A stretch of 63,635 nucleotides of DNA, the filler included, from Vermamoeba vermiformis (Eukaryota), in the NCBI GenBank assembly GCA_045837725.1. It is 11 parts of 11 records of this genome, joined end to end, with 100 filler letters (N's around TTAATTAATTAA, not from the genome) between each part and the next. Parts side by side here need not be neighbours in the genome. Positions count along the whole stretch, not along the records: positions 16,222 to 39,541 come from JBEWZL010000009.1; positions 39,642 to 45,109 come from JBEWZL010000010.1; 9 more parts are not named here. The stretch is one strand, 5' to 3'. A program made the translations under genes and the position numbers. Under the pieces are notes generated by a model. That model was not told where the DNA came from and ran no database searches. It was given only the letters and a program-made list of their open reading frames with translations. Positions 2,181 through 39,978 of the stretch are shown here, one piece after another. Every line of letters begins with the position of its first letter. Within the stretch, counting starts at the first letter, position 1.

Positions 2181-5100
2181 TGCCGCTCACGTCGTCCACG
2201 TCGACCGGAAGCTTGGCCAGGGACAAAAGAGTGCCTGCCTGAATGATGGCCGATGCAGCCACGGCAGGGAAGGTGGCCTTTGCTTCCTCTCCCGGTTGCT
2301 GGAGGAGGATGCAATGTCTCAAGCACCAAAGGAAAGGTCTCGCCGCCCAGAGAAGGTCCTGATCCTTTCCTGCCGAAGGCAAGCACCATAAGGTGCTCGA
2401 GTCCTTGGTGTCCACGAAAGTCGAAAGGCAGGCGAAAAAGTCGGCGGACAGGGTCGGGTTGGTCTCTTCTTCGTCGACCGTTCCGGGGGGAGGAGATGAG
2501 TAAAAGCAGTAGTGGGCTGGGGAGAACTCCACTTTGGGCAGGACCGTAAAGCTTTGGGTAGAAGAGAACTTGGGTAGTTCCCCAGTCTTGAGGCAAGCCA
2601 GCAGGACGAAGCAGCCCGTTCCTCCTTGGACGTCTTGGGGATCTTGCTTGTATCCATGGTGTTTGATGACATTGAACAGCAAGGTCGTCAGCACACGGCT
2701 GGACATGATGGATGTGCAGGCTGCCCCCAGGGTGCGAGTGTTGAGCAGCAGCACGGTGGAGAAGCCCAAAATCGCCGCCTCCTTGGCCTTCTCGATCCTG
2801 ACGCTCGCCTGCTCGTCGGTTTGGACTTTTCCTCCCCTGGCATCCACCAAAAACAGGTGCTCCACCTGAACCAGGAGGTGAGAACTCGAAAAGACGGACG
2901 AAGGCAATCTCGCTTACCTGGTCTTCGGCCGAGAGGTCGACCTTCACGGGCAACAGAGGCTGGATTCCCGGTAATATGTCCTCAATCTTGTGCTTTTCGT
3001 CGAAAGCAAACACGTGGGCCCAGTCTCTCAATCTGGTCTTCGATTTCGGCTTTCCTGCCACCTGCAACGACTTGATGATGGCTCCCGCCACGTGCTCCTT
3101 GTCTTTTTCGTTGCAGAGGGATAGGACGTCGGTGGGAGAGCAAGGTTCGTCGAAACAAGCCTTCCATTTTTTCCTTTCGTCTGTCGCCTCCTGGCTCTCT
3201 GGGCTTGAATTGTGAAGCTTCAGGTAACTGGCGACCACGCTCTCGTTGAACCATTTTTGAACTTCGTCCTTGTCTTTAACTATCTGGCATAAAGTTTTGA
3301 AGCTGGGACCCTTGAGCTGTTGGGATGCCGCGAACATCATCAGGGCGTAACGTTTCCGAGGATCAGGAATTCCCTGGAGGCCGCTCAAGCTTTCGACCGA
3401 GTAAGGTTTCGATTTGTTCTGCATCCTGGACAGGTGCTCGTACCAGACGGGCCAGACGAAGAAGGGATAGGCATGAGGAGGGACCTGGTACGCCCACTTG
3501 ATCTTGTAGTGGTTGCTCTGGATGATTTTGACCACGGCCTCCATCGCCTTGTCTCGAGTCTCCCGGTTGGCTTCAGCAAGCCTCTTGGCCTCTTCCGCCT
3601 TGATCGAGTTGGTGGCGGCGGCAATGTTGAAGTTGAACTCGGACATTATGCTCCTGTCTGCTTCTGCGGGGTCCGTGTTCTTGTCGAACACTTTGACGAT
3701 CCATCTGGATCTCAGCATCCTCAGCAGGTTGACCAGAGTCGGTTTCTCTTGCTGAGATTGCATGTAGAACAGGTTGTTGGTGATGGTGACCTTCTCGTCC
3801 TCGTCCAGGTCCACGTAAAGTTGGAGCAAGACCTTGGGGGCCGGCACCTTCCCCGAAGCTTGGAGTTTCTTCGCGGCCTCTCTCCTGTGTTGACCGTCGA
3901 GGGTCTCCACCTTCGCTGCCGGCAAGGCTCTGGGATCCTTGACCTCCTTCATCCAGTGCTCCAGCTCCTCCCAGGCAGATGAATCGACGCAGCCCACCAC
4001 CAGGGTGAAGTTGTCCCATTCCTCTCCGATCGTCTCGACCTTCTCCTGCACCAGCTTCTGGTTGAGCTCCCTGAGGACGTTGCTGGCCTGGTGGTCGTCC
4101 AGCACCTCGTAGGGAACTTCCCCAAAGGTTCCCACGCACTTGGCCTTGGTGATCTTGGAGGCTTCTTGCTGGAGGGTCTTGAGCATTGCTGGGTTCTCTT
4201 TGATCCCTTCCAACAAGCTTTTGGCATCCTTGGGCATGTCCTTGCTTTTGCTGGCCTCTTCCACCGCCTTGCTGACCATGCTGGCTCTCCTGTTCTTTTT
4301 GTCGTTTGCTTCTGCCTTGCTCTGGGCCAGTGCCTTGCTGGTGGCTAATTCGTCCCTGATCCTCTTCCTGGCCGACTCGGACACCTCTTTGGTGGCAACG
4401 ACCTGTTGGAAGGTCAGAGTTAATCCTTTCTTGGCTCAAGAATAGATTTTTACACTTACCTTTTGAGGAGTCATCTCCAGCACCTTGGTCTTGCTGACGA
4501 CCGGGAACGTGTCGGGATCTCCGAACGGCTCTTCCTCTTTGGCCTTCTCCGATTGCACTCGAATCGCCTTGGGAACCAGGCTCTCTTCAATCTCGGCCCT
4601 GGCAGCCTCTTCGGTCAGCTCGTTGGTGTTGGAGGGCTCCCTTGCTCCCGCTTTCACTGCCAACTTGTACTCCACCTTCCAGTCATCCATGACTTTCTGG
4701 AAGGTATAGTCTCCTTTTTCGGTGCGAGTCAGGTTCCAGGTCTGCAACTGGGCGTTCACCTTGTCGGGGTTCCAGTGGGACTTGATCTCCAGGCAGGCTC
4801 TTTCTTCCAGCTCCGGAGCCTTTGCCAGGGCCAGCCAGCATTGGCTTCCACCCTTGACCAAGTGGACAACCACCCATTGGTCGTCGCCTCGGTTGATCTC
4901 CTGGACGGCCTTCTGGTTCTTGCCCATGATCGGCCCCTTGTACAGAAGGCACTTTCTATCTTGGTCGGCCTCGATCCACCAGCTTCCAGAGGGCACCCCG
5001 CTCACGTAGCTCCTGGGACGTTCGTCAGTTTCCTGCTTGAGTTTGCCTTGCTCTCTTACCTGTCGGACCACTTGCTCTTTGCGTTGGGCTTGAGCTCTCC

Positions 5101-5262
5101 CATCAGCTTTTCCAACTCCTTTTGTAACTTCTTGGCCGCTCTTTCTTCTTTTCGTTGCTTTCCTTCTTCCTTTCTCGTCTCTCCTTGCTTTAACAAGTTC
5201 AAGATCTGGGTAGCTTGGGTAGATTGCCTGTAAACTCGAGTTAGAATCTCTTCTTGGGTCAA
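2181..5262 (-). CDS. Large GC-rich spliced protein (about 970 aa visible, 3' end lost in the gap, 5' end uncertain) with a ParB/Srx-like DGQHR domain
   Basis: Three short GT-AG introns (5059-5013, 4459-4403, 2917-2866) join ORFs 5056-5262, 4436-5071, 2129-4384 and 2125-2907 into one frame. Motif VLRELNQKLVQEKVETI...VETLDGQHRREAAKKL...VLLQLYVDL. Confidence 0.7.
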
Positions 5263-5662
5263 GAAAGGATTATCTCACTGCAACTTTAATCTTTTCCCTC
5301 CGACTCAGGAAGGGATTTTCCCTCTCTGACTCAGGAAGGGATTCTTCATTTCGAATAAAACTTAGAAATTTACTATTCCCTTCCCTGTCTGCAAATATTG
5401 TACTTACGACATCTTTGCAGATTTTCCTTTTCTTGGGTAGCAGGTTTTCTGCTTTGTTGTTGTCGAGTGTGGTGTTGTGTTTGTGAGGGTGAGTAAAATG
5501 AAATTTTTTTGTTTCCAAACATTACTATTGAATTTCCTCCCTTTTTATTTAGGGAGGATATTTTTTCCCTCCCTGTCTCAGAAAGGGAAAGTTTTCTGCA
5601 AATTATAATGTTGCTTCTCGAGTTGAAAATCCCTTACTGCTTAGCAGTTTGTCTTGGAGGAA

Positions 5663-5840
5663 TTGGGGGGGAAACCCCCCACACCCCCCAGCAACATTTT
5701 TTTCCTTTCATAGCCCAGGATGTTTTGATCTGCGCTTCGTTTCCTGATGCAATTTGTCCAAATTCAAGTCTCTAGAACATTTTCCATGATTGGAGACATT
5801 GGGGGGGAAACCCCCCCACACCCCCCAGCAACATTTTTTC
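5663..5840. repeat. Two direct copies of a GC hairpin module TTG7-AAA-C6/7-ACAC6AGCAACATTTTTT
   Basis: Copies at about 5663-5703 and 5799-5839. The G-run/GAAA/C-run forms a perfect stem-loop. Confidence 0.85.
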
Positions 5841-6799
5841 TCATTTTTTCTTTGCTTTTGCCTTGCCGAAACCCCTTCAATCTCTGATTTTGTCCTGATT
5901 TTTCCTGATTTTCTGTTGTTTTTGCCTGATTTTCCCTCAATTTTGGAATTTTCGCCTCAATTTCCTTCATTTTTCCCTTTGTTCTTTCAAAATCCCTTCC
6001 TGTCTCAGGGAGGGATTGCCTTGTAGGGAAGGGATTTTCATCACTGCCTGTCTTTCTTCTTGAATTCCCTTCTTGAGCCAAAGAAGGATTGTCTTTCGAA
6101 AACGGCTTTCACAACCCTAACCCCGATGTTTTTTGATATTTCTCATATAAATGTTATTATTGGAAACCAAACATTAAGATTTCTGAAATTGTCGACAACT
6201 ATCCAAATCGTGAGACAGCCATCGAACATTTTACTACAGCACTATGTACCCAAGCTTAAACGGAGTGTTAATGCAATATTTTCCTAATGCGTTAGCCGCT
6301 GCCAGAGAAATTGCAATCGTATGCTAGATCTGTGCATCATTCAGCCAGATTGGTTGCATCGATTTCATGTCATGCTTTGCAACGTCAATTAATCATTAAA
6401 TTATTTTGATTGTTCAACAAATAATTAATTATTAACACCAATAATTAGCAGTAATGATAAGAACTGTCAGCAAAATTAGTGCCCTATATTTGGCAATTTT
6501 TGTTGCGTAATTTGACAGCTTCTACGCTGCAACAAAATGTGTGAATTTAAGTTGTGTGTAGAAAAAAAAATCTGTGTAACAACCTGAATTTTATCAGCTA
6601 TATTGATAAATGCACCAAGTTTAAACTTTTAGTAAAGAGATTAGACAAGTATTTTAGAATTGTTGAGTATGATAGTAGTACGTCGTCGTTGGGCTGTGCC
6701 AACGACAAAATTTAATCATTTGTATCATTTATTCATGTGACTCAAAGGCAAGTGGCACATGTGGCAGCTAAAAATCGTTTTTTCCTAAATTGCCGCATG

Positions 6800-9700
6800 G
6801 TACCCGTGTCATTTATGTATCTAGTGTGGTGTAGCGTGACCCACATCTTGAGTAGTGTGGGAATGCCAAACAGTTGAAAGGTCACCTAGTTCGACACTGA
6901 GTTGCCTGGCAGTTACCATATTTGGACAAGATAGGTTGAATGAAATCCCCATCAGTACAAGTGACATGTGCAAACAGTGACCAGCACGCACTTCAATCAC
7001 GTGCTGTTCAAGGTCTTCAGGCTTGTCCGAAGCAATAGCCAGATCCACTGCTTGTACCAAGATTGAGACCGTTTATCGCAGCCAATAACATCGCTCTAAC
7101 TGATATTCCGATCTGCTGGACCCAACGACATTGCCTGCGCTGAACAGTGTTAGCGAGAGTAGTGGTCAAATAAGGCACTCTTACTTGATGTCAGAACCAA
7201 CAGCTCCAATGTTTTGTAGGCTTGCTTGTTGCTTTCAAAATTTTGCCGCGATCTGCCTGTTCTCGGTATTGATGAGCACTGTGTCTTTAACCTGCGAAGA
7301 TCAGCACGGATTATTACTAAACTAGGCAAGTACCTGAATAACAGAATTCGCTCCTGGCGGCGCTGGCGCTCCAGTCGTGATCGTAGCCACGTGACCAGAT
7401 GTGACGGACTTGACCAGCTGCAATGAGGCCGAGGATTGGGTACTCGCCAACACCGTCCTGCACACCATCAGTGAGTTATTGTTGAAGCCTATAATGCACT
7501 GTTACCTCTGCGACAACGAGCGTATCCGTTCTTGTTGCGTTCTTGATTGGGCCGGGAAAGGCGGGAGTGGATCTGCAGCGGACATTTTGACCCAAAACAC
7601 GTCCTAGTGCTTGCTAAACTGGCGTGTGCCTGGCAGCATTGGATACGGTGAAGCTTGTGGAGCTCTTGTGCTGTCATGTTTCTGATCAGAAAATAATTAA
7701 AAGGAATTTTATTGTTGGATTTTTTTTCGGTTAGACGGAGGGAAGTACGTACGTATCAGCGAATGCTTTACCGCAGCCTTCGGCGTTATAAATGAGGCGA
7801 AAATGCTTTGTTGCACCTTCTGTATCGCATTAGAAGGTCTCTGAAAGAATTAAAAAATTAAAATAGCAAATTAGAACGGCGAATCCACGATCTTGATCAA
7901 AAAAATTCAAGATTACCTTTACAATTTGCGATATAATATACTGCTCGAGCTTAGCAGCTTTTGGGCAGCGCTTGTTGCATCCTTCGTAAGGGAGATGAGA
8001 CCAGAGAGACTTGTACTAAAGAAGAGTTGATAGATCGTAGTGAAGTAGCCCGTGCCTGGTGAAAAAAACAAATTCGCTCAGCTTGGAAAGTATTAATATT
8101 AAACGGTACCATAATTTTAGAAAATTGTTGATCTTTCTTGGTCTCTTGATCGGATTTTAGACCAACACTACCCTAAGGTGATGCACCGTTCGGTAATCAA
8201 CCATAGTTGGCAGCAAGACGACTTCCCTCGGAGCTTGAGGTAGATACTCACATGTAGTAGAATAAGTTGGCATCCAAATTAGCTTCGGCACGTTAGTTTC
8301 GGCATAATGATCACGTGATTTGTTTCACGAACCACACACCGCTTTTTTTGTCTCGTTCGTGCAGTTCACGTACATCAAAAACGTGCAGTGGAGCTTTTAG
8401 CGCTAGATCTTTGCTAAATTGAGCGGACAACACCCAATGGCAGTATTGAGCCGATCAACTAGTACTGTATACGTGTGAAGCCAGCATTGGTTTAGTAATG
8501 ATTTTTTAATACATATATATTAGAATTGAGTTCTTGCACAAACCTTGATATTTGTGCGCATTCTTTTAAGTTCGTTCGATTTACTTACCTTCCCAACGCT
8601 AAAATTGGCCCAAAATCTCAGAAAAAAATTGGAATCGCGGTAAGGCAAGGCTATTTCGTCGTTCTAATGCATCTGTGGCAACAAATAGCATGTAATTCTA
8701 TTGTACGTACCGCAGTGCATCGTTGAGGCCCAACCAATGGCAAGTGCGAGCACAAGGAACTTTGTTTAAGCTTCAACTTTGCCAACTAACCCAGAGCCCG
8801 GTGGAACACATCACAAACATCATAACAAAAGAAAACTGGTTGTTTTGAGAGGCCGTACAAAGCGAGCCAAGACCGATTTACTAAAAGAAATTTCCGCCGA
8901 ATACTGCTTCTTTGACCGGAGTTTGACCTCGTTCATGAAGAAAAGACCATTTTTTGCCCGAGCTTCTCGTCTTTCTTCGTAGCAACCCAAGAAAATTCCA
9001 AAAGAAGCGTTCCTACTCCTCGTATTTTAAAATGACGAATTACCCAATAGAAGAGGTGATAGGCAGGTACAAGAGCGAGTTTCCCTCGAACGTTGCCACT
9101 GTTGGATGACTATGTCTGTTTACTGTCTGTCTCAGCACGGCGTGAGAACAATTATAACGTGACGCGAAGGAATCGCCTAAGTCTGTTAGTAAGAGAGCAA
9201 AACTACTTCCAAATGCTTTTGGGAAACGTTCCGTTTTCTTTCCGAATGAATTAATAAAAAATAATTGGAACACACCAAGTCTACCTCTTTACCTGCTTTC
9301 CTACGGTCTAGCAAGCACTCAAATAAGCCAGCTGCTCGCAGATATGGTTGCACAAAACGTAAACACTTGCAATTCGTTGCCGAACGCAGTTTGTACCGCC
9401 CAGCCCGAGGTCACTTAATTTAAAAAGCAAAAATACGGTACAATTCAAGGTAATAATTACGCAAGATTTGCTCTCCGAAGTAAATAAAGCATGCGTCAAC
9501 GCAACGATATCGTTCAGAACAAGAACAGAAAGCTAAAAAAGGAAGGTGTTTCATGAAAAAAACCGCTAACAATTCGTTCTTTATTCGAATGATTTAATAC
9601 TATGTTCGAACATTGCCTCCTTCGAGAAGCGAATATAATCACCGAAGTTGTTCAAGTCTCCAGAGGCGAAACTTTTTGCATCTGGTCCGCGGAAGGACAA

Positions 9701-10560
9701 CCGCGAGAAAGGATGAGATCACCTTCGTCAATCCGCCGAGAACTTCAGTCTTGCTCAAGGCAGGACACGCATGAAACCGCTGGTGGCAGATACGTAATCA
9801 GCGGGAGTTGAGCCTTGAACCATCTTGACGAGGCCACCGAAACTGAACAATCCAGATGCGTAAGGATCGTTCTCAGTATCTGTGATGCGACCAAGTACTC
9901 CAGTAGTGGCTGGCATTTGTGCGTGGACATTTTGCACGATGTTATGGGCGAACAAGAAAGGAGGCAAGCGAATAGTTGTTGTCGCAGGCTCAACTGACGC
10001 ACCAGCGTTAGCAACGAATAGCGCGTCACCATCCTTGTAGAGTTGCGTCAGTTTGCCCATCACGCTGATCGTAGAAGCGAGTCATAGGGTGATTAGTGGG
10101 GAACTTAATCCTGGTCGACCCATTTAGTGATGGGGTTAGGGCTATTTAAATTAAACCGTTAGACGTCTGCGATAATCTTTCTCTTGTGTGAATTACTTAC
10201 TTTCCACCTGCCATAGCGTCCTTGTTACCATCGTGAAATCACGAACACTTTGAGGTCGGGATGGACGTGTTGAAAGCACTCTTCGGCAGCATCGATGAAA
10301 GCACCAATGGTAGGTAGTAGGCGAGCAGTTAGCACCTGTCAAGGTGATATCTCGCAAATAAGGGTTGGCATCAGAGGACGCGTCCTCTTGGCAAGAGCTT
10401 TGATCTTGTTCGCGCAAAGCCGGCCACCTAATTAAAACAATCAATAAATAAAATATTAAACAGTAAAATAAATATCAACAAGGTGGAGACGTCTATAATA
10501 CTTTAAACAACATTCGAACTTGGAAATGATTTTAGATTTAACATCAGTCAACTTTGCCGA
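6800..10560 (-). pseudogene. Decayed multi-exon coding sequence(s) of unknown family
   Basis: Exon-like blocks bounded by GT/AG read as plausible protein but contain in-frame stops (e.g. IKNATRTDTLVVAEVTVHYRLQQ*LTDGVQ; VLINTENRQIAAKF*KQQ; ANLFYYM*VSTSSSEG). No family recognised. Confidence 0.35.
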
Positions 10561-11770
10561 AATTCTCTTCTTGCTAATATCGTACGTCAGAATTTACGCG
10601 GATTATAAATCCTAAAATAATATTTTGATGCTTAATATTACCGTAGTTGCCTTTTGTCTGGGTTAATGCGTGCAATAAATATTTTACTAATACGAAGTCA
10701 GATTCGCAGTAAAAACTGCGACTCACTAATAAGCACGACAAGTGCGGTGCCTTCCATTAGATAATTAAGTGGAGGACTGAAACAACTATGAAAGAACGGT
10801 CGACAAAGGCAAAAAAAAGCCAAATTTTTTTGGCCAAACGGTCGCAAAAAATAAACGTGTGTGTGTGTGTGCACAAACTCACCATGGATACCACACAGGA
10901 AGCAGTTAAATATATAAAAAGGATGCCAAGCAGCTCAGCAAGTTCAAGGAAGACAAGATCTGTCAATTGAAGAAAGAAATTCNNNNNNNNNNNNNNNNNN
11001 NNNNNNNNNNNNNNNNNNNNNNNNNNTTAATTAATTAANNNNNNNNNNNNNNNNNNNNNNNNNNNNNNNNNNNNNNNNNNNNAATACTCCCTGTCATATT
11101 TAAAATGGATAAGAAACAACTGTGCAGAACCCAGATTCACTTGTTGAAACTCTAAAATCCAAGATAGAAAGTACGAGGATGAATCTGAAACTTTGAAAAG
11201 ATAACATTGTTTTTCTGCTTCCTTCCACTTAGTACTCTTGTGGAAGTTGTAGACTCTTCATGGTTGCAATCAAAATTGTGTTAATAGGGTTGCTTCTTCC
11301 TTGACTTGACCAACAGGTCTTCATAATCTTCTTTATCATCTTGATGGGTGCACTTTTGTTTGTTTTTGTGGTGAGAGGATGAGCTGGAGTTGTCTTCCAT
11401 TGCCTTGTCATTGCTATCATTTTCATTGCTGTCCTCACTATCCTCACTGCTGTCCTAGGTTTCATACTCATAGTTGTCATTTTCATATCTGTCAGCTTCT
11501 TTCATTATCTGTAGCTGGTAAGTGTATCTGAATATGTCCTCTTGCTGAATAATGTAATTCTGTGTGAAACCAGTAGCAATTTCATTCACTTGAGTAAGAT
11601 CTTGCACTAGATTGAAATCAAGTCCATTGTCATGAACACCTTGTTGTGTCAGCGTAGTGATTGTTCACATTAAGCCCAATAAAGTCTGAACTTTTATTGT
11701 AGACCATAGAGGTTTGATTATTCTACTTAAAAGGCTAGGGCTGGGATGGTAGTACCCTAAAACTTTTGAA

Positions 11771-12130
11771 GAATTCTAGGCCTTTCGTCCGAAGATCGGA
11801 CGATCCCAGACCAATTTCCGAGAATTCTTGACCATTCGTCTGAAGATCGGACGATCCCTGACCAATTTCAAGAATTCTTGACCATTCGTCCGAAGATCAG
11901 ACGATCCCAGGCAATTTTCAAGAATTCCTGACCATTCGTCTGAAGATCAGACGATCCCAGACCAATTTCTGAGAATTCTTGACCATTCGTCTGAAGATCG
12001 GACGATCCCTGACCATTTTCAAGAATTCTTGACCATTCGTCCGAAGATCAGACGATCCCAGACCAATTTCCGAGAATTCTTGACCATTCGTCCGAAGATC
12101 GGACGATCCCTGACCATTTTCAAGAATTCT
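11771..12130. repeat. Minisatellite: 7 tandem units of 50-51 bp plus a partial eighth, each with an internal hairpin CGTCCGA-AGA-TCGGACG
   Basis: Units begin GAATTC at 11771, 11822, 11872, 11922, 11973, 12023 and 12074; partial unit at 12124. Confidence 0.97.
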
Positions 12131-12418
12131 CGATCATTGTTTGACAATTCCAAATAAAAGTGGCAATACACCTCAATTTATGTAAAAACAGGTTGAATTT
12201 GCAGTGTTCAACGAGTTATTTACTTTGAATTCAATCATGACTGTCTTCCATCTCAATTCATGACAGCTGACATAGCTTATTCTAAATTTCATGTAAAACA
12301 GGTTGAATTCGGTGTATTCAACCAGATTTTCGTATTAACTAGTACGTACTAATAAAACGGTAAATTTAAACTTGGTTCGAGTACAGAGTGCTAACGGATC
12401 TAGTTTATTTTAAATTGA

Positions 12419-13371
12419 TCAATCAAAATCAATTGCAGGGTACTTTTCAAAGTGTTGATAATCGGTGCCTTCCTCTCCCGTAAAGAAGGATTCCGCGTCG
12501 TGAAGCTCTTCTAGTATTTCCAAGTCGAAATCATCAAAATAACGCTTGAGTACCTTCATTTCCACGGAATTTCCAAAACGACGGGCAATGTAGAGAAGTT
12601 CCTTATTGCGTCGATACGAGGCAGCCAACCACAAGTGATCCCCATCTTCTGCGGTGCTGATGTCAAAGCCATACCATTCGAAGCTCTCATACACCACGCA
12701 TACTCCGTTTATGAAGTCGTTGAGAAAGCCAGCAGCAAGACCAAGGCCAAAGCCGTACCTGGGAAGCCCAAGATGGAACGCTCTGAGTGCAAAATGAACT
12801 CCGTTCATACTTCGAGCTACCATCGCAAGTTCGAACAAGTTGCGATTCGGGCGATAACGGTGCACACTCCATGCCTTGAGAATTCCTCGGTACGTGCAGC
12901 CAAGCGTCATGAGCGACACTAAAAAGTGCCCTGCGAGAATTGGAGACGAGTAAAAGGATTGACAGGCCAATCGTAGATTGAGAACCGACCTGGCAAACTC
13001 TGGGTCGTACTCTACGTAGCAACTATCTCGGTCAGATCGTCGACGTCGACGTCGACGAGCACTAGTTATTGCGACTTGGTAGGCAGCCCGGATTGCATCG
13101 GAGCCAACGTTGCTCCATTCGTCATAATAAATTTGTTCTATTACGAACAAAAGCTGTAAATAATAAATTTGTCAGTAAACTAATTAATAAAAATAATTTG
13201 TTTGTGAAAAATTTATAGACGAATTTAATTATTAATTTTTATTTAGCTTTAAAGTGGTGTAAAAATTAGTTAATAAATATCCTTAATTAAAATACTTACG
13301 GCATCCTGACTCGGGTATAAATCTGGGTCGTCGCCGTTTAAATCGATGATTATATCTTCGTTGTGCTCCAT
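12419..13371 (-). CDS. Hypothetical protein of about 268 aa (2 coding exons, intron 13299-13154)
   Basis: Exon MEHNEDIIIDLNGDDPDLYPSQDA splices in phase 0 to ORF 12419-13150. Contains an Arg-rich stretch (ARRRRRRRS). No family recognised. Confidence 0.6.
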
Positions 13372-30383: not shown

Positions 30384-32438
30384 ATGTAAGGCCACTAACC
30401 TGATCAAATTTGAGATCGAATCTGATCGAGCGTTTTCTGATAGGCAAGCGCGGGTGATTATTTATTTAATATCAGTCAACCTACTAGGAGGATTGATCTT
30501 CGGCTACAACACAGGTATGAATTTTAACTAATTTTTTTAATATCAAAATATTAATTATCAATTACTAGGCGTTATTGCACTGACTTTAGGCACGATTTCA
30601 GATGAATGTGGATTAAGTACTATATTGCAAGGAGTATTAACGACGAGTATTTTGGTTGGAGCATTTGTCGGATCTGCAACAGGCAAAGTCTCGCGAGAAA
30701 TTTTCTTTAACGCAATGCTAATATATGAAATATTATTATAGGCATATTAGCGGATAAAATAGGCCGTAAAAAGGCCGTGATAATATTCAGTGCCGTTTCA
30801 TTTGGTGGCGCCATCTTTTCAATGGTCTCACCTGTCTTTTGGGTCCTTTGTATCGCTCGTGCAATCCTAGGTTATGGTAATTAATATGAATATAATCTTA
30901 TTCATAGATTTCCTCGCTAAGCGCTGTAACAAGCAGATTCACATCCGATCTAAACTTTATCCTTCCATTTCTTGAATGACTAATCGTTTGAATTTAATAC
31001 TAATATTATATAAATGATTAATATATGTTATTTTAGGCGTTGGATTGGCGACGAGCGTTTGTCCGTTGTACGTGGGAGAAATGTCGAGTGTCAAATTGCG
31101 AGGCCGATTGGGCAGTTTGTTCGAGCTTGGCTTGACTTTAGGCATATTCATCAGTTACATAGTGTGCTATTTATTACTGTTACGTGATCCTAACGATTAC
31201 ATTGCCCGAGGTACGAGTAGATCGTGGATCTGGATCTATGTTTTCAGATCCAGATCCAGCGTTTGAAAGTAATCTGAACTTAATACTAATATTAAATTAG
31301 GGTGGAATTGGTATTGGAGAATAGCCTTTGGTATAGGAGGAGTGTTTGGAGTGATAGGGGTTATAATTGGAATTTTCATGCCCGAATCTACCTTTTGGAT
31401 CGAGAAACAAAAACAAAGCATGACAAAGAAATCCAATGATAATGATTATAAGAGTAATAGAGGCGATAATAATAACGAAGATGAGCCTAAAAAAGGCATG
31501 CAAATGTGGAAAGAGTTTTTCAAGCCGAAGAATGCCAAGTACGTGATCTTAGGCGTCATGTTAGCTGTGTCGTATCAACTTACAGGTATTAATTTCCACG
31601 AAAAATATGTAAATTTAATTGATTTTATTGTTGTAGGAGTCAACGCAATTAATTTTTACACGCCTACCATTTTGGAGAGTGCTGGGCTTACGGATACGAA
31701 TCTATTCACTTTAGTAGGTTTATATAATTACATTAAAGCATATTATATAATATCAGCGGTATTTACGGCTCGTCTTTTGGTCAGATCTAACCATTTTTTT
31801 GTCGCTAGATTATTGGTGCTTGGAATTTCTTAGTAACAATCCCACCGATCTTTTTTGTGGATAAATATGGAAGAAAACCATTAATGCTCGTAGGACTATC
31901 GACTATAGTGGCTGGATTGGTCATGATTGCTTCATCGTACTACGCATCCGTAAGTCAAAACCTGGATCTGTTTTAAGTTCCGTGCTAACCACGCGTTAAT
32001 AGGATTTATTGACTAATGGCATAGTAGCTATGGTTGGAATTGGAATATTCATGATTGGTTTTGAAGCTGGACCAGGGTAAGTTCTCGATCGGATTTGACG
32101 ATTTTTTTTTATTTGTCGTCTAACTCCAGTACAATTATAGAATAGTATTTTGGATCTTAGTAGGCGAAATATTTCCAAATTCAATGCGCGATGCCGCACC
32201 GAGTTTCATCAACGCATTCGAACAGCTCTTAATCATCGCTCTGACGCTAGCGTTCCCTTCGTTAGTCGTCGCTATTGGTGCTGCAAATATATTTTGGATA
32301 TTTGCAGGCATAGGAGTGTTATGCACGATTTATATTGGCGTTATGTTGTCTGAGAGTAATGGCGCCGAGATCGGACAAACTGAACTAGCTTCACCTGGCA
32401 ACAATGCTCGCGATACAAAGAGCGAAGAAGTACCTTGA
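30384..32438 (+). CDS. MFS sugar porter family transporter, multi-exon; the start codon is split by an intron
   Basis: LGGLIFGYNTG, ADKIGRKK, YVGEMSSVKLRGRLG, MPES, QLTGVNAINFY, VDKYGRKP and EIFPNSMR motifs. Confidence 0.92.
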
Positions 32439-32603: not shown

Positions 32604-33317
32604 TTATTTTCGGAGTACGCCACATCCGCTAACTACTAATTCGGAGTTAGCAGAGAGCCAGTAATGATACACCTGGATTAAATCGCCTTCAACACTTATC
32701 AAGCCAAAGCTAGGAGTTATGAAGGGCTCATCAGGACTTCTCACCGCTGAAAGACTTGCACCGGTGGCGGATCCAGGATCAATAAAGAACTTTCCGTCGT
32801 GTTTATACGCCTTGAACTCGTGTGTTCCACCTGTAATTAATACATCGCAATCTAAGCGACGTTGAATTACTGCGAGATCTTCTTTGTCGCTGGCAAGGAA
32901 TGGATTCGTATGTACCAGCCCAAACTTGAACGATCCGACCGTTAAAACTGTTTCTTTTGGAAGCGTAGTGTCCTATTATATTTAGATAAATACAGAAATA
33001 TTATTGATACATACCTCATCGCTAACACCTTGCACAATGTGAACGTTTGGCGCTATCGTCTTTAAATAATCATGCGTTTCTTTTGTAGTTAAATTTCCCG
33101 TGCATAAAATGTGGTGAATTATGTTAGGCCCCTGTAAAAATAAATTAAATAATTATTCTATAATTATTTTAATATTTACCAAGGGACGTTTAAATTCGTT
33201 CGGTACATCCAACGCTCGTTGTGGAATGTGGAAGTCCCCGATCACCAAAACCAATATACCATTACTCTGTTGAATACGTAGTTAGATTAAACAATTACAA
33301 GCTTGAATTGTTACCAT
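32604..33317 (-). CDS. VPS29: VPS29-like retromer subunit (metallophosphoesterase fold), divergent
   Basis: Spliced translation [23 protein letters not shown]...HILCTGNL...[33 protein letters not shown]. Absent from the ORF track. Confidence 0.88.
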
Positions 33318-33446
33318 TTGCCACGAATTAATAACGAAGTTTAATGTAATTCCGTTTTCCCTACACAATAAGATCTTATAGCGCTAATATAGCGCTAAGC
33401 TAATTATCTAGTAGTATCGCATTGCTAGCAATCAAATATATTTTAA

Positions 33447-34589
33447 TTAAGCTGCAGGGAATAACAATCCCAAACCTCGCATCTGCAACAAGGCGTTTTT
33501 GAACGACGTTCCTTCGTGTCCGGTGATTTCTTTAAAATCATTGGTGGGCTTGGCGAATACATTTGATTTGCCTGCTAGTTCATACAGCTCGATTAAGCCT
33601 TCCGCCTGAAAGATCAACTTTAGATCCTTGCGTACGTTAAATAAATTTAGTAACTGTACCATATACTCGGGAGACGATTTCTTTATCATTTCTAAGAGTT
33701 CGTTTGGTTGCATATCTTTTAATTTAAGCTTCTTTTGCAATACTTCCTCGTAGATCTGGTTTCCATAATTAAATACTAATTTAACCTGGAGAATATTTAT
33801 TCCGCTTACCTTAGCTTGTTCTTCATTAGCTAATGGCTCAGGTCCAGATAATAAATACTCCTTATTCAGAAATCTGTCAGGGCTCAGTAAAATAGTGCTG
33901 GATGCGTCGCCAATGTCATGCGTTGAAAGAGGACAAGACACAGCACTACGATCGATCATAGGAATCATGTAATTGTCAAGTGTTTGGTCCTTGATTGACA
34001 TAGTAACACCATCATCCTATACAGAAAATTTAGTTTTGAGATCCAAAAGTACATCCGTGACACTAAACTTACGATTATAGGCACGGTACGAAGGAAACAA
34101 TAAGGTATTCCCGAAGCCTTAATATGTTTTTCAGCTTTACTAGCTTCTTTGCCAATTATAGTAAATTCCTTGTCCGCACCAAAGGCCGACACGAAGACGA
34201 TCATTTTGACACTTTTGACACTTTGACACTCGTCGACAAAGCTCGTGACTAAATTAGTTCGATCGTACACTTTCATATCTTTCTCTGGCTTAGGTGATAT
34301 CACCCAAACTCTTTCGACATTCTGAAAATTGTGAGATCTAGCGAATGCAATACTAACAATTTAAACGTACCTGAATAGCCTTTCGAACAGACTCTTTGTC
34401 CTTCAAATCCAAATCAACAATTTCTACGTTATTTATAGCTTCAAATTGCTTCAATTTCTTGTAGTCTTGGAATGGACCACCAACGCGAATGATAGCAGAT
34501 CCGTCATTCTTGGAAATGATCTGTCGAATAACAGCTGCTGCGGTATTACCCGTAGCATTAGTAATTAAAATAATAGGCTTGTTGCTCAT
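33447..34589 (-). CDS. NmrA-like NAD(P)-binding atypical SDR protein
   Basis: ILITNATGNTA Rossmann start, AEKHIKASGIPYCFLR, DIGDASSTILLSP and YLLSGPEPL. Four short introns. Confidence 0.85.
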
Positions 34590-34671
34590 TATCCTGAGTC
34601 TTAAAAATAAAGGCGAAGAAATTTTCTTTACTTGCACGAAAAATCACGTGCTTCATTTTCTATTCTGGATA

Positions 34672-34949
34672 TGCTCCAACCAGAATACTCGTCGTTATAC
34701 TCCTTGTAATATAGTGCTTAATCCATATTCATCTGAAATCGTGCCTAAAGTCAGTGCAATAACGCCTAGTAATTGATAATTAATAATTAAAAATAATAAT
34801 AATTAATTTAAAATCACACCTGTGTTATATCCAAAGATCAATCCTCCTAATAGATTGACTGATATTAAGTAAATAATTAGCCGAGTTTGCCTACAAAAAT
34901 CTTGATGAGAGTTCGATCTTCAACGATCTCACAATCGTTAAACTTACAT
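34672..34949 (-). pseudogene. Truncated duplicate of the 5' exons of the sugar transporter at 30384
   Basis: Near-identical exons (LISVNLLGGLIFGYNTG; VIALTLGTISDE). A 1-nt deletion (GGAGTATAACG versus GGAGTATTAACG) creates TAA, and similarity ends shortly afterwards. Confidence 0.85.
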
Positions 34950-35056
34950 TCGCGGCTATTTTGATGTGTAAAATAATATATTATTTAATCCATATTCTTT
35001 TAGTTAAAGTTGTATTAAATAAATTGAGAGGTATCTCATTTTTTATTTGTTTGACT

Positions 35057-37508
35057 TCAATCGTCATATCGCTTGTTTGGTTTTTTGTTTCGCTTTGTTC
35101 TTCCATAGTCAGTTGTGTTTATATTTCGGTATTCACGTGCAATCCACTCAGTACTTGTCACTGGCTGTATCAACACTGGGGCATCATAGTCATTTTCATC
35201 TAATTCATCTTCATCTGGATAAGTCTCTGGTATGACAGCATCAACATCAGGGTGCACTGCCTCGTGCACCACTTTCACTGAGGTTGTGGACTGGTCATGG
35301 TGACGCTGCTGTGGTGGCAAGAACATCAATTCATAATTTGTTGTTGGGCTGTCAAACTCAATATCTAGTAGATCAATTGCAGTTGTGTCGTCTTCTGCAG
35401 GCTGATCGGCATTGAATAATTCTTCAAAGTATTGTTGCTGTTCCTCAGATAGTTTGTCGTAAGTTTTTCTGGTCGCTTCAATCACTTTGTCGTCAATTGG
35501 CTTTGGTTCAATCTTGATTGGTTTGTCCGCTGGAATATTGTGAAGGATAACAATATCGTCACCATCTGCACCCCCTTTCCACTCCTCATCTGTTGCCGTG
35601 TAATTGCGCCAATGCATTACAACGCTTCCTTGTGCATTGACAGTGAATCGAAAAACATGGGGCTTTGTGTGCCCAGTGAGCTTTGGTAGATATGGGGCAA
35701 GCCAGCCACGATAATCATAGATAGTTTTTACCAATCGCACTTCTGGCGGCGAATTGTAGCAACTCTTAATGTACTCTTTGACATCTTCATCGTCGCCCGT
35801 AAGGAGATTATGTGACTTGAGTCCAATAGCCACTGGCACGTTCTCTTGGTCAATGTCTGTATGAGTGTGTCCTTGAGGAAGGCAAATGAAATAGATGGTA
35901 TTGGTAAACTTTTTGAGCAGCAAAACCGCAAAAAAGCCAAAAACGTAGGTATTTTTGTTCTCTCGCCAGCAGTTGTCGCTTTGAAATACCATTGTTGGTG
36001 GCAGAGCCTGACCATCTCTGATTTGCGAAACTATGTGAATGGCTAGTAGATTGATGCTGTAATTGCTGTCGTGACTATACTGTTGTGCAATTGAGACAAA
36101 CAGAGTACGTCGCTTGGTGTTGTGGTTGATAAGTCCGGATATTTGCAATCGCAAACGTGCAAGACGGAGCCAAGATTTTGGGAACTGAGACCAGGCAATG
36201 TGCGGAATCAAAATCCCTGAATAGCCATCCCATATCATTTGCCAAATCAAAAAGCTAGCGATTAGCTTTCGGTTAGAATATGTCAGCCGTTCTAACTTTT
36301 GCAATGCGTTGTGCTTTGCCACTTGCTTTTGAACGTTGGTAACTTGAGTTTGGGACACTGCAGCAGCTTGTTGCAACTTCCTACGCAAGATTAGCTTCAC
36401 TGTGAGTATGGAAGAAACTTACATTCTGAGCTCCACACATTCGTCACATTTGCCCAACCGCGTAGTCTTTGGGAATTTGATCCATGCGTACTGAGAAATT
36501 GTCGTATAGAAAGTACTCAGCGATGCTATGCGATGCGTTTCCTCAAATTCTGAAGCATATTGAGCGTAAAGAAGCTTTTTGTTAAGCGCAATAGGGCAGT
36601 GCCATTGATCACTATCAGGTTGTTCATCGAAAAATATGGACATCAAGCTGAGCACAAAACTTTGCACCGACTGTAATTGAGCTGATGAATACAATCTGAG
36701 GGCATTACCATGTGGAATGACAGAGCAACTAGACTCTTGTTTGATTTGTTGTAGCAGAGGTGCAAGCTTGTTTGTACTGATTCCAAGCAGTTTGATGAAA
36801 GCGCGTTGACAGACTTCAAGACCGTCAAGCTTGTAACAAATCGTCGGAGGCTTGTCACTTCCTTGATCAACTTTCATCGCATTAAGGGAATCAAGTAGCC
36901 ATCTTGACCTGCCATCGTGTCAGGCATTTAGCAGAAACATGAGGTACGTACCTTTCGCGCTCAGATTTCTCAGAGTATGGCAGTCGTAAGCGTTCAATCT
37001 TCTGGACATTAAATTGCCTCATACACAGTTGTTTGCAGCACTTGTATTGCAACAGCTTTTCATTGAAATTACATAGCTTAAGCTGCTTTCGTGATGGTGA
37101 CGCGACGCGCAACTTTCGAGTCTCGGATTTGTAAGTGCGTTTTGGGGAGGGGTCATAGATTGAGGATACTCGTCTATTAATATCTATTATGTGTAAGCAA
37201 TGCAGCTAATTGTAGAACGATACGTACCGTCAAAAATTTTATTGCTATCAACCTCGTAAATCCACGACCGCCGATCATCGCTCGTGCTTGTTGTCTCATC
37301 TTCATCTACATATATTAATGAAATGCAGATAGATATAAATGCCCATACCCTTATTGAAGACTTTTGTTGTGTCAAAATCGCAGATCCAGTCCATTCGACA
37401 ATTATTAAATTAATTATTGCGTTATCGGCACGTGACGGCTTCAGCAATTTATCTACAATGATGGGTGTTATTGCACATATTATTACTGTTACTATTGTAA
37501 TTATTCAT
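35057..37508 (-). CDS. Sola-like (DUF7869-type) DDD transposase, spliced; 5' exons uncertain
   Basis: CCKQLC, VCQRAFIKLLGIS, KFPKTTRLGKCDEC, HNALQKLERLTY, WDG, FQSDNCWRENKN and LPQGHTHTDIDQ. A short intron near 36422-36380 removes the apparent stop. Confidence 0.82.
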
Positions 37509-37735
37509 AATACAATCACTCGATTAAATAGCCAAACACATCTGGTCGCTTGGATTTAAAAAAAAATTAACCAAACTGATTACCTTCAAAGTGAGATAGC
37601 TGCGACCCTATATAGTGCCTATTGTGGTGCTTATATCATGTTATATATTGTAAATACGATAAAATTCGAGTTGGTTTTCTCAGGGTCTGAAACTCTGTTT
37701 TTAGTTTATTTTATTTTTGTTATTGAACACCACAC

Positions 37736-39482
37736 ATGTCGGCAGCCACTCTGGACCCTGTTCTTATACGAATTTATCAAGGGGAGTCTATTGATAATAT
37801 TACATTGCAAGTACGAGATATTGTCCCGCCATCCACTCCCGGATCGAAGCTCAAACATTATTGGTAAATATTATTAATTAACTACGAGATAATTATATCT
37901 ATTGTTCTCATTCATAAATCAACCTTGTAAATAATATTTAATAATTATTACTGGTAATTAATTTATTGCAACGTATGAAAATTAAATCTCCGTTATTGGC
38001 GGGTCGTTACGTAAATTACTTCACTACTTCGACACTTGATAATTTGCATTTGTTTACTGCTTTCATTTATTATTTTAACTGATGATTCATAGTTTGTTAT
38101 TATCTGACGCGCATGTGATGATACCGTGCATTTTGCACGAGTCGCTGAATGACAAGATTGCAAATGGTGCAATCAAAACGGGATCAATACTACGTCTTTC
38201 GAAATGGAGCTGGCATAACCATAATGATCGGTACGCCCCTCAGCATCAATTTACATGATCTAACTACTTGCAATAGTCGTGTGCTCTCTGTCGTTGCATC
38301 GGGGCTTACCGTTACTGGGCACATGAAGCAGATCAATTTTAGTGCTGTGCGTGACATCTATGAAGCAGTGAATGATTTTGAAGGTGAGTGTTATCGATGC
38401 CACGCTGTTCTTATAAATTGCTAGATGACGGACTTGACATGCCCACACCTACACACGCTACACAAGCCACTGAACGTGAAGCCGATGAAAGAACTCTGCG
38501 TAGGTGACCAACTGTACACAGCATAATTGTCTTGATTGCTGATCATAATTTAGAATTGTGGATAGACAAAGGCATGAAGCTCATTGATGAAGGCATCGAT
38601 CACAAATTTTACGACCACGATCAAGGACTGCAAATCAAGTACAAGAGTCGCTTATACGTTGAATTTGATGCTCTCATCTACAAAGAGGCGTTCCACGAGA
38701 AGGGCGATGATTGCTTTGCAAAGAAATACGGTGTGTGTACAATTGCCGCATGTTTAAAGGCAAAATCCACCTCAAAACCGTTAATCGCCCTGCATATCAA
38801 CAGTGATGGTGAAGATCATTTTGCTTTGGTTCAACCAGGATCAGTAACCAATAATGGGTATAAAAACAACGACGATGAGCCTATGCACATTGAACAATTG
38901 TGGAGAGAGCACGTGACCAACAACGGAACTACTGCACGCCCAAAGAAACAAAGACCAGCCAGTGATGACTCGGAACTGCCATCAAAAAGCACTCGATCTC
39001 GTACACGCGAGGACTCTGATAGTGAAGATGACCGCGCCCGTAAGCGTCATAAATCAGACAACAATCTGTCGAATCAGGTCTCACCACAGCTCACCGAATT
39101 GCTTGCTGATGTTGCAAGCATTGGACAGAATATCTCTGCTTTATCAGCAACCATCAGTTCACAGCATGATAAAACATCTCGTCAGCTCGTACTCTTGAAC
39201 AACACAACCAACGCAAAGCATACTGCCATCGAAGAACGATTGAAGTCTTTGTCTGACGAGATAAAGGCAGTCAATAGTTCAATCAAGACATTGGATGAAG
39301 TTGTGCAACGCATATTGTCGCACGTGAAAGCTGACGCGAAAGAGAAGGAAAAGGTTGTTGTCGTACAAGCACCAATACCTCAGATGCGCCAAGAGCCTCA
39401 CTATGTTGTGCCACCAAACTACTACTCGGGAACACCCTCATACAATGGCCCATACAATAGTCCTTCATCACGTTTTTTCTAA
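37736..39482 (+). CDS. 5-exon protein: RPA70 N-terminal (Rep-A_N)-like OB domain, uncharacterised middle, basic NLS region and coiled coil
   Basis: Exons 37736-37863, 38093-38230, 38277-38383, 38425-38499 and 38554-39482 splice in frame. N-terminus MSAATLDPVLIRIYQGESIDNITLQVRDIVPPSTPGSKLKHYCLLLSDAHVMIPCILHESLNDKIANGAIKTGSILRLSKW...DRRVLSV. Confidence 0.75.
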
Positions 39483-39978
39483 GACGATTTGTCATAGCAA
39501 ATTTCAATAAAACGAGAGATATCTCATTTTATCTAATTTAANNNNNNNNNNNNNNNNNNNNNNNNNNNNNNNNNNNNNNNNNNNNTTAATTAATTAANNN
39601 NNNNNNNNNNNNNNNNNNNNNNNNNNNNNNNNNNNNNNNNNATTATTTCCTCAAAGTATTTGTGATTGACAGCCACTACCGCCTTAAAAATAAAGAGCTC
39701 GCTGCAGCTACCTTCATAGTTAATTGATGCTAGTATTCTAACTTTAGGATTAAATCCTCCCTAACACCATCCGGATTCCGTTTCGCGTCAGTTTGGAACT
39801 GGGCCGACATAAGCCCGTGCTCCTGACTTAAATTAATTCAATGTTCAAACCAAATGCTAAGAATATTCAGAGCAGCGGACTAAAAATCTGGGTCGCGTGC
39901 TTCGATCGAACTGTCTAGAAACTTCGACAAGATTAAATTTTATCGCAAATCGTACAATAATACCACAAGACAAAAGTC

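Follow-up and report, generated by a model that had tools for sequence, protein, structure and literature searches.

The DNA analysed here, referred to as the window, is a stretch of 63,635 bases from Vermamoeba vermiformis (assembly GCA_045837725.1). It is a chain of contigs joined by ten linkers (44 N, TTAATTAATTAA, 44 N) at sites from 2081 to 61193, for example at 39542-39641, where TTAATTAATTAA is the customary six-frame-stop spacer joining concatenated contigs. Our attention was given to the right-hand part of the contig at positions 16222-39541, in which two intact genes lie head to head between short terminal repeats: a spliced transposase gene on the minus strand and a five-exon gene, here called the accessory gene, on the plus strand. 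The pair probably forms a mobile two-gene unit, and the accessory protein likely starts with a segment resembling the N-terminal domain of RPA70 (RPA70N; Rep-A_N in Pfam). The features of the locus are listed below with their positions in the window.

35014-35068, no strand: left terminal repeat region, core GAGAGGTATCTC at 35026-35037, placed by the direct repeat, the depth step and a contig departure.
35057-37394, minus strand: transposase gene, 721 amino acids, spliced open frame from the ATG at 37394 to the stop codon at 35057.
37394-37349, 37305-37228, 37183-36952, 36908-36423 and 36380-35057, minus strand: transposase exons, from splicing.
37348-37306, 37227-37184, 36951-36909 and 36422-36381, minus strand: the four transposase introns, GT..AG, 42-44 nt.
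35597-36163, minus strand: DUF7869 (PF25273) domain, Pfam E 1.8e-47.
36227-36229 (WDG, just upstream of the DUF7869 domain), 35975-35977 (SDNC) and 35849-35857 (HTDID), minus strand: putative DDD triad, from invariant Asp residues.
37395-37735: spacer of 341 nt between the start codons, from which both genes diverge, defined by position.
37736-37863, 38093-38230, 38277-38383, 38425-38499 and 38554-39482, plus strand: accessory gene, five exons, 458 amino acids, from splicing.
37736-38383, plus strand: RPA70N-like (Rep-A_N) domain, about 125 amino acids, exons 1-3, from the exon-2 PF04057 match and RPA1 alignments.
38425-39482, plus strand: accessory exons 4 and 5, from the open frame and exon-5 homologues.
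38643-38858, plus strand: small conserved beta-rich domain, no family assigned, from invariant columns shared with the homologues P0004 and P0005.
38934-39056, plus strand: basic/acidic stretch with runs resembling a nuclear localisation signal (NLS), from the translation read directly.
39084-39356, plus strand: long helix, likely a coiled coil, from AlphaFold2 and weak Pfam matches of coiled-coil type.
39480-39541, no strand: right terminal repeat region, core GAGAGATATCTC at 39514-39525, from the direct repeat and a gapped inverted alignment.

Removal of the four GT..AG introns gave a single frame of 721 codons, in agreement with the original prediction of an intact spliced transposase. The last large exon of the gene (453 amino acids) matched the Pfam family DUF7869 with 161.9 bits (E 1.8e-47, cut-off 26) over profile positions 6-190 of 192, and precomputed family assignments place the same domain in the homologues P0001-P0003. 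The motifs WDG, SDNC..ENKN and GHTHTDID that had first drawn attention to the gene are present, and the Asp residues of WDG, SDNC and HTDID were invariant in all four aligned transposase sequences. A DDD catalytic triad is the defining feature of Sola elements. The protein appears to be a DDD-type transposase of the DUF7869 family, its only curated match, and may be of the Sola type. One paper (PMC5751038) reports that Sola had no Pfam model in 2017 and that fungal Sola elements were almost confined to one genus. The C-terminus of the transposase (35060-35350, minus strand) has a highly acidic stretch, then a short motif, then a basic tail, all of them conserved between the window and P0001, with a variable region between.

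The accessory gene was spliced as originally proposed, and its translation agrees with the string obtained earlier by hand. Combinations of splice sites at the exon 4/5 borders were retained only if one open frame resulted; an alternative donor for exon 4 at 38475 would yield a protein of 450 amino acids. The divergent arrangement was also found as described, the two start codons lying 341 nt apart and both stop codons facing outward, and by its position the spacer is presumed to be a shared divergent promoter.

Three exons, each in a different frame, encode the N-terminal domain of the accessory protein, and the Pfam scans were made exon by exon against a Rep-A_N (PF04057) cut-off of 26.7 bits. 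Exon 2 of the window scored 23.1/22.9 bits (E 8e-5, profile positions 42-80 of 101), with PF04057 as the sole Pfam family matched, and exon 2 of a diverged relative, the locus L001 described below, had the same family as its best match with 25.5 bits (E 1.3e-5, positions 41-79), so that each match spans 39 of the 101 profile positions. A profile built from these two exon-2 sequences was used in a word-filtered search among longer proteins, in which 61 candidates were scored and E was scaled to 5.8 billion proteins. All three matches obtained (E about 2e-3) were plant RPA1 proteins, each carrying PF04057, PF16900, PF01336 and PF08646. One of them, P0008 (955 amino acids), has Rep-A_N at residues 6-108 followed by three further OB/C-terminal domains. 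The spliced L001 domain aligned to its residues 31-134 (47 bits, 35% identity) and the spliced window domain to its residues 1-102 (34.7 bits, 27% identity). Both alignments run from N-terminus to N-terminus, are collinear and fall largely inside Rep-A_N, that of L001 extending 26 residues past the domain end. Rep-A_N clusters likewise led the ranking in a protein language-model search with L001 exon 2 (204 of 256 features shared at a score of 0.93; 13 of 30 matches). The exon-2 scores, the profile matches confined to RPA1 proteins and the shared language-model features all uphold the earlier suggestion that the second gene begins with an RPA70N-like segment, and, mainly on about 40 residues in two diverged proteins, we regard this assignment as likely.

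The remainder of the protein has no counterpart of the RPA DNA-binding domains. As had been anticipated, the OB domains A-C (PF01336, PF16900, PF08646) were absent from every accessory exon in Pfam scans with E up to 1-10. The accessory gene was also considered as a full-length RPA1 orthologue and rejected, since P0008 has all three families and no accessory exon has any of them. Exon 5 had no Pfam family above that family's own cut-off and no homologue by word-based search, and an exhaustive search of 1.8 billion representatives returned P0004 (E 5.6e-14) and P0005 (E 2.8e-11), both of which share the beta-rich domain, the basic/acidic linker and the long helix with the window exon. A third candidate, the repeat protein P0006 (E 4.5e-5, 5 short stretches), was deemed spurious. 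For the beta-rich domain AlphaFold2 predicted four strands with a confidence score (predicted local distance difference test, pLDDT) of 40-54; it matched no Pfam family and gave no usable match in the protein language-model atlas search. The helix, at exon-5 residues 177-267, was modelled at pLDDT about 90-96, which supports the coiled coil proposed originally.

Evidence that the two genes move together came from read and contig mapping, for which positions 33000-39541 of the window (6.5 kb, flank included) were used as target for four public runs containing the sequence. In run X2, made of DNA contigs with the same organism label as the window, summed word depth was 505-933 in the nine flank bins (33000-34970) and 4,022-12,831 in the 21 element bins (34971-39541), the step falling within bin 34971-35189, about 200 nt from the proposed left end. 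Window-identical X2 contigs had depths of 3,870-4,299 over the transposase and 4,273-4,784 over the accessory gene, against 177-424 over the flank; word depth is not copy number, and the roughly tenfold over-representation shared alike by both genes indicates one repeated unit. As 215 of the 279 X2 contigs were at least 99% alike, the copies are young. Two joints of internal deletions were found within the transposase, one leading from 35875 to 36042 (skipping 166 nt) and the other from 35977 to 36417 (skipping 439 nt), and such internally deleted derivatives are as expected for a DNA transposon. No second copy of the element occurs elsewhere among the contigs of the window. In run X9, which bears another organism label, two contigs of depth 2-2.5 were identical to the 3' part of the transposase (35129-35299 and 35504-35859); carry-over or an element shared very recently may account for them.

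A scan of a metagenome collection with the transposase alignment confirmed one related locus, L001, among 117 pattern matches; the same search of viral and prokaryote contig collections found no transposase relative among 34 and 55 pattern matches, respectively. The L001 transposase showed 51-65% identity in three main segments (residues 119-452) and 38% over residues 39-122, and its tblastn segment borders at residues 119 and 281/282 correspond to two intron positions of the window gene. On the opposite strand, upstream of this transposase, there is a collinear match for each of the first three accessory exons: exon 1 at E 0.028, exon 2 at E 8e-6 with 46% identity, and exon 3 at E 3.7, which is chance level. 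Exons 1-3 of L001, when spliced at GT..AG borders, gave an open N-terminal domain with intron phases 2, 2, 1, the same as in the window, and the two spliced domains are 34% identical over 105 amino acids (54.7 bits). The pair has thus been kept over considerable divergence, which argues against a chance neighbour. Both genes are intact, lie between the terminal repeats, are repeated together at about ten times the flank depth and occur as the same pair in a diverged relative; the two-gene mobile unit of the original prediction is borne out by this equal depth, by the deleted derivatives and by the conservation of the pair in L001.

The ends of the unit had been described as imperfect inverted repeats beginning with 5'-GAG. 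The GAG..CTC cores do exist, but as inverted repeats the 12-nt cores agree at only 9 of 12 positions, and they read better as a direct repeat of 28 nt whose core is near-palindromic. Positions 35015-35042 and 39503-39530 are identical at 24 of 28 sites and their core (35026-35042 versus 39514-39530) at 16 of 17; the 17-nt core motif occurs twice in the window, against 0.03 occurrences expected by chance. Owing to this near-palindromic core, an inverted alignment with gaps over about 58 nt (35014-35068 versus 39537-39480), which reaches both stop codons, scores about as well as the direct one (35 versus 36, shuffle maximum 28). One contig departs at 35005, 21 nt outside the left GAG core, and the left terminus is placed somewhere between about 35006 and 35026. 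The proposed right end, 39525, is 16 nt short of the contig end, so that the right flank and a target-site duplication cannot be read; features on the two sides of a linker are not genomic neighbours, and the sequence beyond 39541 is not contiguous with the element. Each terminal repeat (35014-35050 and 39503-39537) contains AATAAA on the strand of the adjoining gene, about 25 nt after its stop codon, and the repeats may also serve both outward-facing genes as polyadenylation regions.

To the left of the element, a repeat of about 224 nt is present in two copies in inverted orientation, at 30441-30664 and 34671-34893 (197 nt at 88% and 27 nt at 96%), bracketing about 4 kb of host-like open reading frames that by eye are transporter-like, metallophosphoesterase-like and NmrA-like. 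Two DNA contigs depart exactly at 34893, and the repeat itself is therefore dispersed or polymorphic. The single-copy flank at 33143-34977 is represented in the DNA contigs by a second variant with many substitutions and small indels, at about one half to two thirds of the depth, which suggests two haplotypes or types of nuclei in the sequenced material.

We consider it likely that the element represents a single copy of a cut-and-paste DNA transposon with two genes, young and present many times in a eukaryotic genome with short introns, and that the RPA70N-like accessory protein serves as its cofactor. The accessory protein would consist of an RPA70N-like OB-fold domain, a beta-rich domain, a basic NLS-like linker and a coiled-coil helix. 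It would multimerise through the coiled coil and act as a transposition cofactor, the basic stretch would take it into the nucleus, as its NLS-like runs suggest, and the cleft of the RPA70N-like domain would dock an acidic peptide. Cellular RPA70N docks host repair and checkpoint proteins. Two kinds of partner can be envisaged, namely the acidic C-terminal tail of the transposase itself, a candidate docking peptide that is partly conserved between the window and P0001, and the repair or checkpoint proteins of the host. By analogy, the arrangement would be comparable to the teaming of the second PIF/Harbinger protein with its transposase.

A more specific version of this proposal is that a family of cut-and-paste transposons acquired the N-terminal docking domain of RPA70, joined a coiled coil to it and employs the product to imitate host RPA. 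Repair and checkpoint proteins with acidic motifs that bind RPA70N would either be collected where donor and target DNA is broken or be titrated away, which would dampen checkpoint signalling in the course of transposition. The acidic transposase tail may then be a built-in ligand. We put this version forward tentatively, as possible rather than probable, and the recruit-or-decoy role given to the accessory protein in the original prediction is speculation.

A serious rival to the docking role, to which we give a minority chance, sees the accessory protein as a cofactor for DNA binding or targeting, on the model of Myb-like ORF1 in PIF/Harbinger. By attaching to the near-palindromes at the ends, or to single-stranded intermediates, it would recruit the transposase, with no docking of host repair factors. 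Two-gene cut-and-paste elements typically use their second protein in this way. The near-palindromic motif at each end would make a possible binding site for a dimer, the coiled coil is suggestive of a dimer, and the conserved beta-rich domain could serve DNA binding. On the other side, Pfam found no DNA-binding family in any exon, and RPA70N binds single-stranded DNA only weakly.

Several points weigh against the cofactor reading and the domain assignment on which it builds. We infer all functional roles, the docking of repair factors included. No single exon reaches the PF04057 cut-off, and exons 1 and 3 gave no Pfam match even at E 10. When exons 1 and 3 alone were compared with the RPA1 match, 338-937 of 3000 shuffles scored as high or higher, so that the family assignment rests on about 40 residues; the pairwise E-values against RPA1 are flattering, because these proteins had been chosen by their exon-2 match. 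Searching the Protein Data Bank by sequence yielded no RPA70N chain for exon 2 or for the profile of both exon-2 sequences, and no solved relative of the transposase for the transposase profile. The AlphaFold2 models were poor, with a mean pLDDT of 42 for the large transposase exon (4-sequence alignment), too low for placing the putative DDD residues in an RNase H-like active site, and of 54 for exon 5 (3-sequence alignment), which was poor outside the helix. RNA support for the introns or for expression was not found in two RNA runs with the same species label, each of which placed 2 partial reads, all less than 95% alike, on the 6.5 kb; as the flanking host-like genes were likewise uncovered, these runs are uninformative on silence or splicing. 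The 4-nt flanks of the GAG cores, AATT and ATTT, agree at 3 of 4 positions and are not identical, a comparison limited by the right-core flank being the end of a collapsed-repeat contig. Linkage of the two genes was seen at one other locus only.

The points on the domain also favour the view that it is a generic or different OB fold (TPP1/TEBP-beta-like or BRCA2 OB1-like), or no OB fold, and that the Rep-A_N matches reflect a short motif near LLLSD. Besides the subthreshold scores, the insignificance of exons 1 and 3 on their own and the lack of an RPA70N chain in the Protein Data Bank searches, L001 exon 2 had a weaker match to BRCA-2_OB1 (E 0.017), and TEBP_beta (0.86) and BRCA-2_OB1 (0.81) clusters stood among the lower matches of the language-model atlas. 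However, for exon 2 of the window and of L001, which are 40% identical, Rep-A_N was in each case the best family and was matched over the same profile positions, full RPA1 proteins were the only matches of the word-filtered search scaled to 5.8e9 proteins, and the alignments are collinear from N-terminus to N-terminus over 73-104 residues, largely within the Rep-A_N domain of RPA1. We therefore judge a different fold to be rather unlikely.

Less likely still is that, in place of an autonomous 4.5-kb transposon, we have here two genes duplicated as a segment or domesticated together, or the interior of some larger element. Such a reading would fit the direct rather than cleanly inverted terminal repeats, the contig that departs 21 nt outside the GAG core and the fact that neither a target-site duplication nor an empty site was seen. 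It is opposed by the roughly tenfold jump in depth within about 200 nt of the proposed left end, by the break of the contig just after the right repeat, by the low-depth host-like genes of the left flank and by the near-identical and internally deleted copies, which are typical of active DNA transposons. Finally, it is very improbable that the second gene belongs to the host, as an ordinary gene or an RPA1 fragment, and lies beside the transposase but outside the element: the ends are not fixed, 16 nt separate the proposed right end from the contig end and the pair was seen at a single other locus, but the accessory gene lies between the terminal repeats, its depth is that of the transposase and not that of the flank, and the head-to-head pair recurs in L001 with the same intron phases at only 34-65% identity.

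RPA-like genes are already known in Helitrons, and the companions known from cut-and-paste elements are DNA-binding partners, as in PIF/Harbinger, or nuclease-like passengers such as Fanzor. According to Bao and Jurka (2013, PMC3627910), second genes are also known in Sola-type elements, as Fanzor1 in Sola2. In full-text searches, whose coverage left out most subscription journals and supplements, no published cut-and-paste element with the RPA70 N-terminal domain alone came to light, and no mention of DUF7869 or PF25273 was found in the literature searched. Accessory genes reveal what a transposon needs from its host. If the domain docks repair or checkpoint factors, the element would offer a natural tool to study how double-strand breaks made by a transposase are handed over to host repair, and it would encode a compact RPA70N competitor that arose by natural evolution. 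For DUF7869, an uncharacterised family of Pfam, a clear context is gained, in which it is the transposase of an element that looks active.

The element can be compared with several known systems. With cellular RPA1/RPA70, represented by P0008, the accessory protein shares its N-terminal 100 or so residues, which are collinear at 27-35% identity. P0008 has 955 amino acids and domains A-C, whereas the accessory protein has 458 and lacks them, and its C-terminal half, made of the beta-rich domain, the NLS-like linker and the coiled coil, differs from that of P0008. Unlike cellular RPA1, the accessory gene resides inside a transposon and is present in about ten copies, a figure that reflects word depth and not copy number. 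Helitrons are rolling-circle elements whose RPA70-like genes encode single-stranded DNA-binding OB domains. They resemble the window element in bearing a derivative of the large RPA subunit on a transposon, whereas the window element appears to be of the cut-and-paste type and to have only the N-terminal docking domain, with none of PF16900, PF01336 and PF08646. PIF/Harbinger elements have two genes, one for the transposase and the other for a Myb-like ORF1 protein that partners it. The likeness lies in a second protein gene whose product is presumed to be a partner localising or recruiting the transposase; the transposase families are unrelated, and a Myb/SANT DNA-binding domain stands in place of the RPA70N-type OB domain and coiled coil of the window element.

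A parallel in architecture is offered by the two-gene Sola2 elements of dictyostelids, which carry Fanzor1 and are described by Bao and Jurka (2013, PMC3627910). The statement in the original prediction that Sola elements normally have a single transposase gene is overstated, since these two-gene elements are in print. The paper also gives a 4-bp AT-rich target-site pattern for Sola2, AWWT, with ATAT, AAAT and ATTT reported. The Sola2-Fanzor1 elements share with the window element a transposase of large size in which three Asp motifs are invariant, terminal repeats that are short and imperfect, AT-rich 4-nt flanks that fit AWWT (AATT and ATTT in the window) and a second, unrelated gene carried inside. 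They differ in that the terminal repeats of the window element read better as direct than as inverted repeats, and in that their second gene is Fanzor1/TnpB-like, while that of the window element is RPA70N-like.

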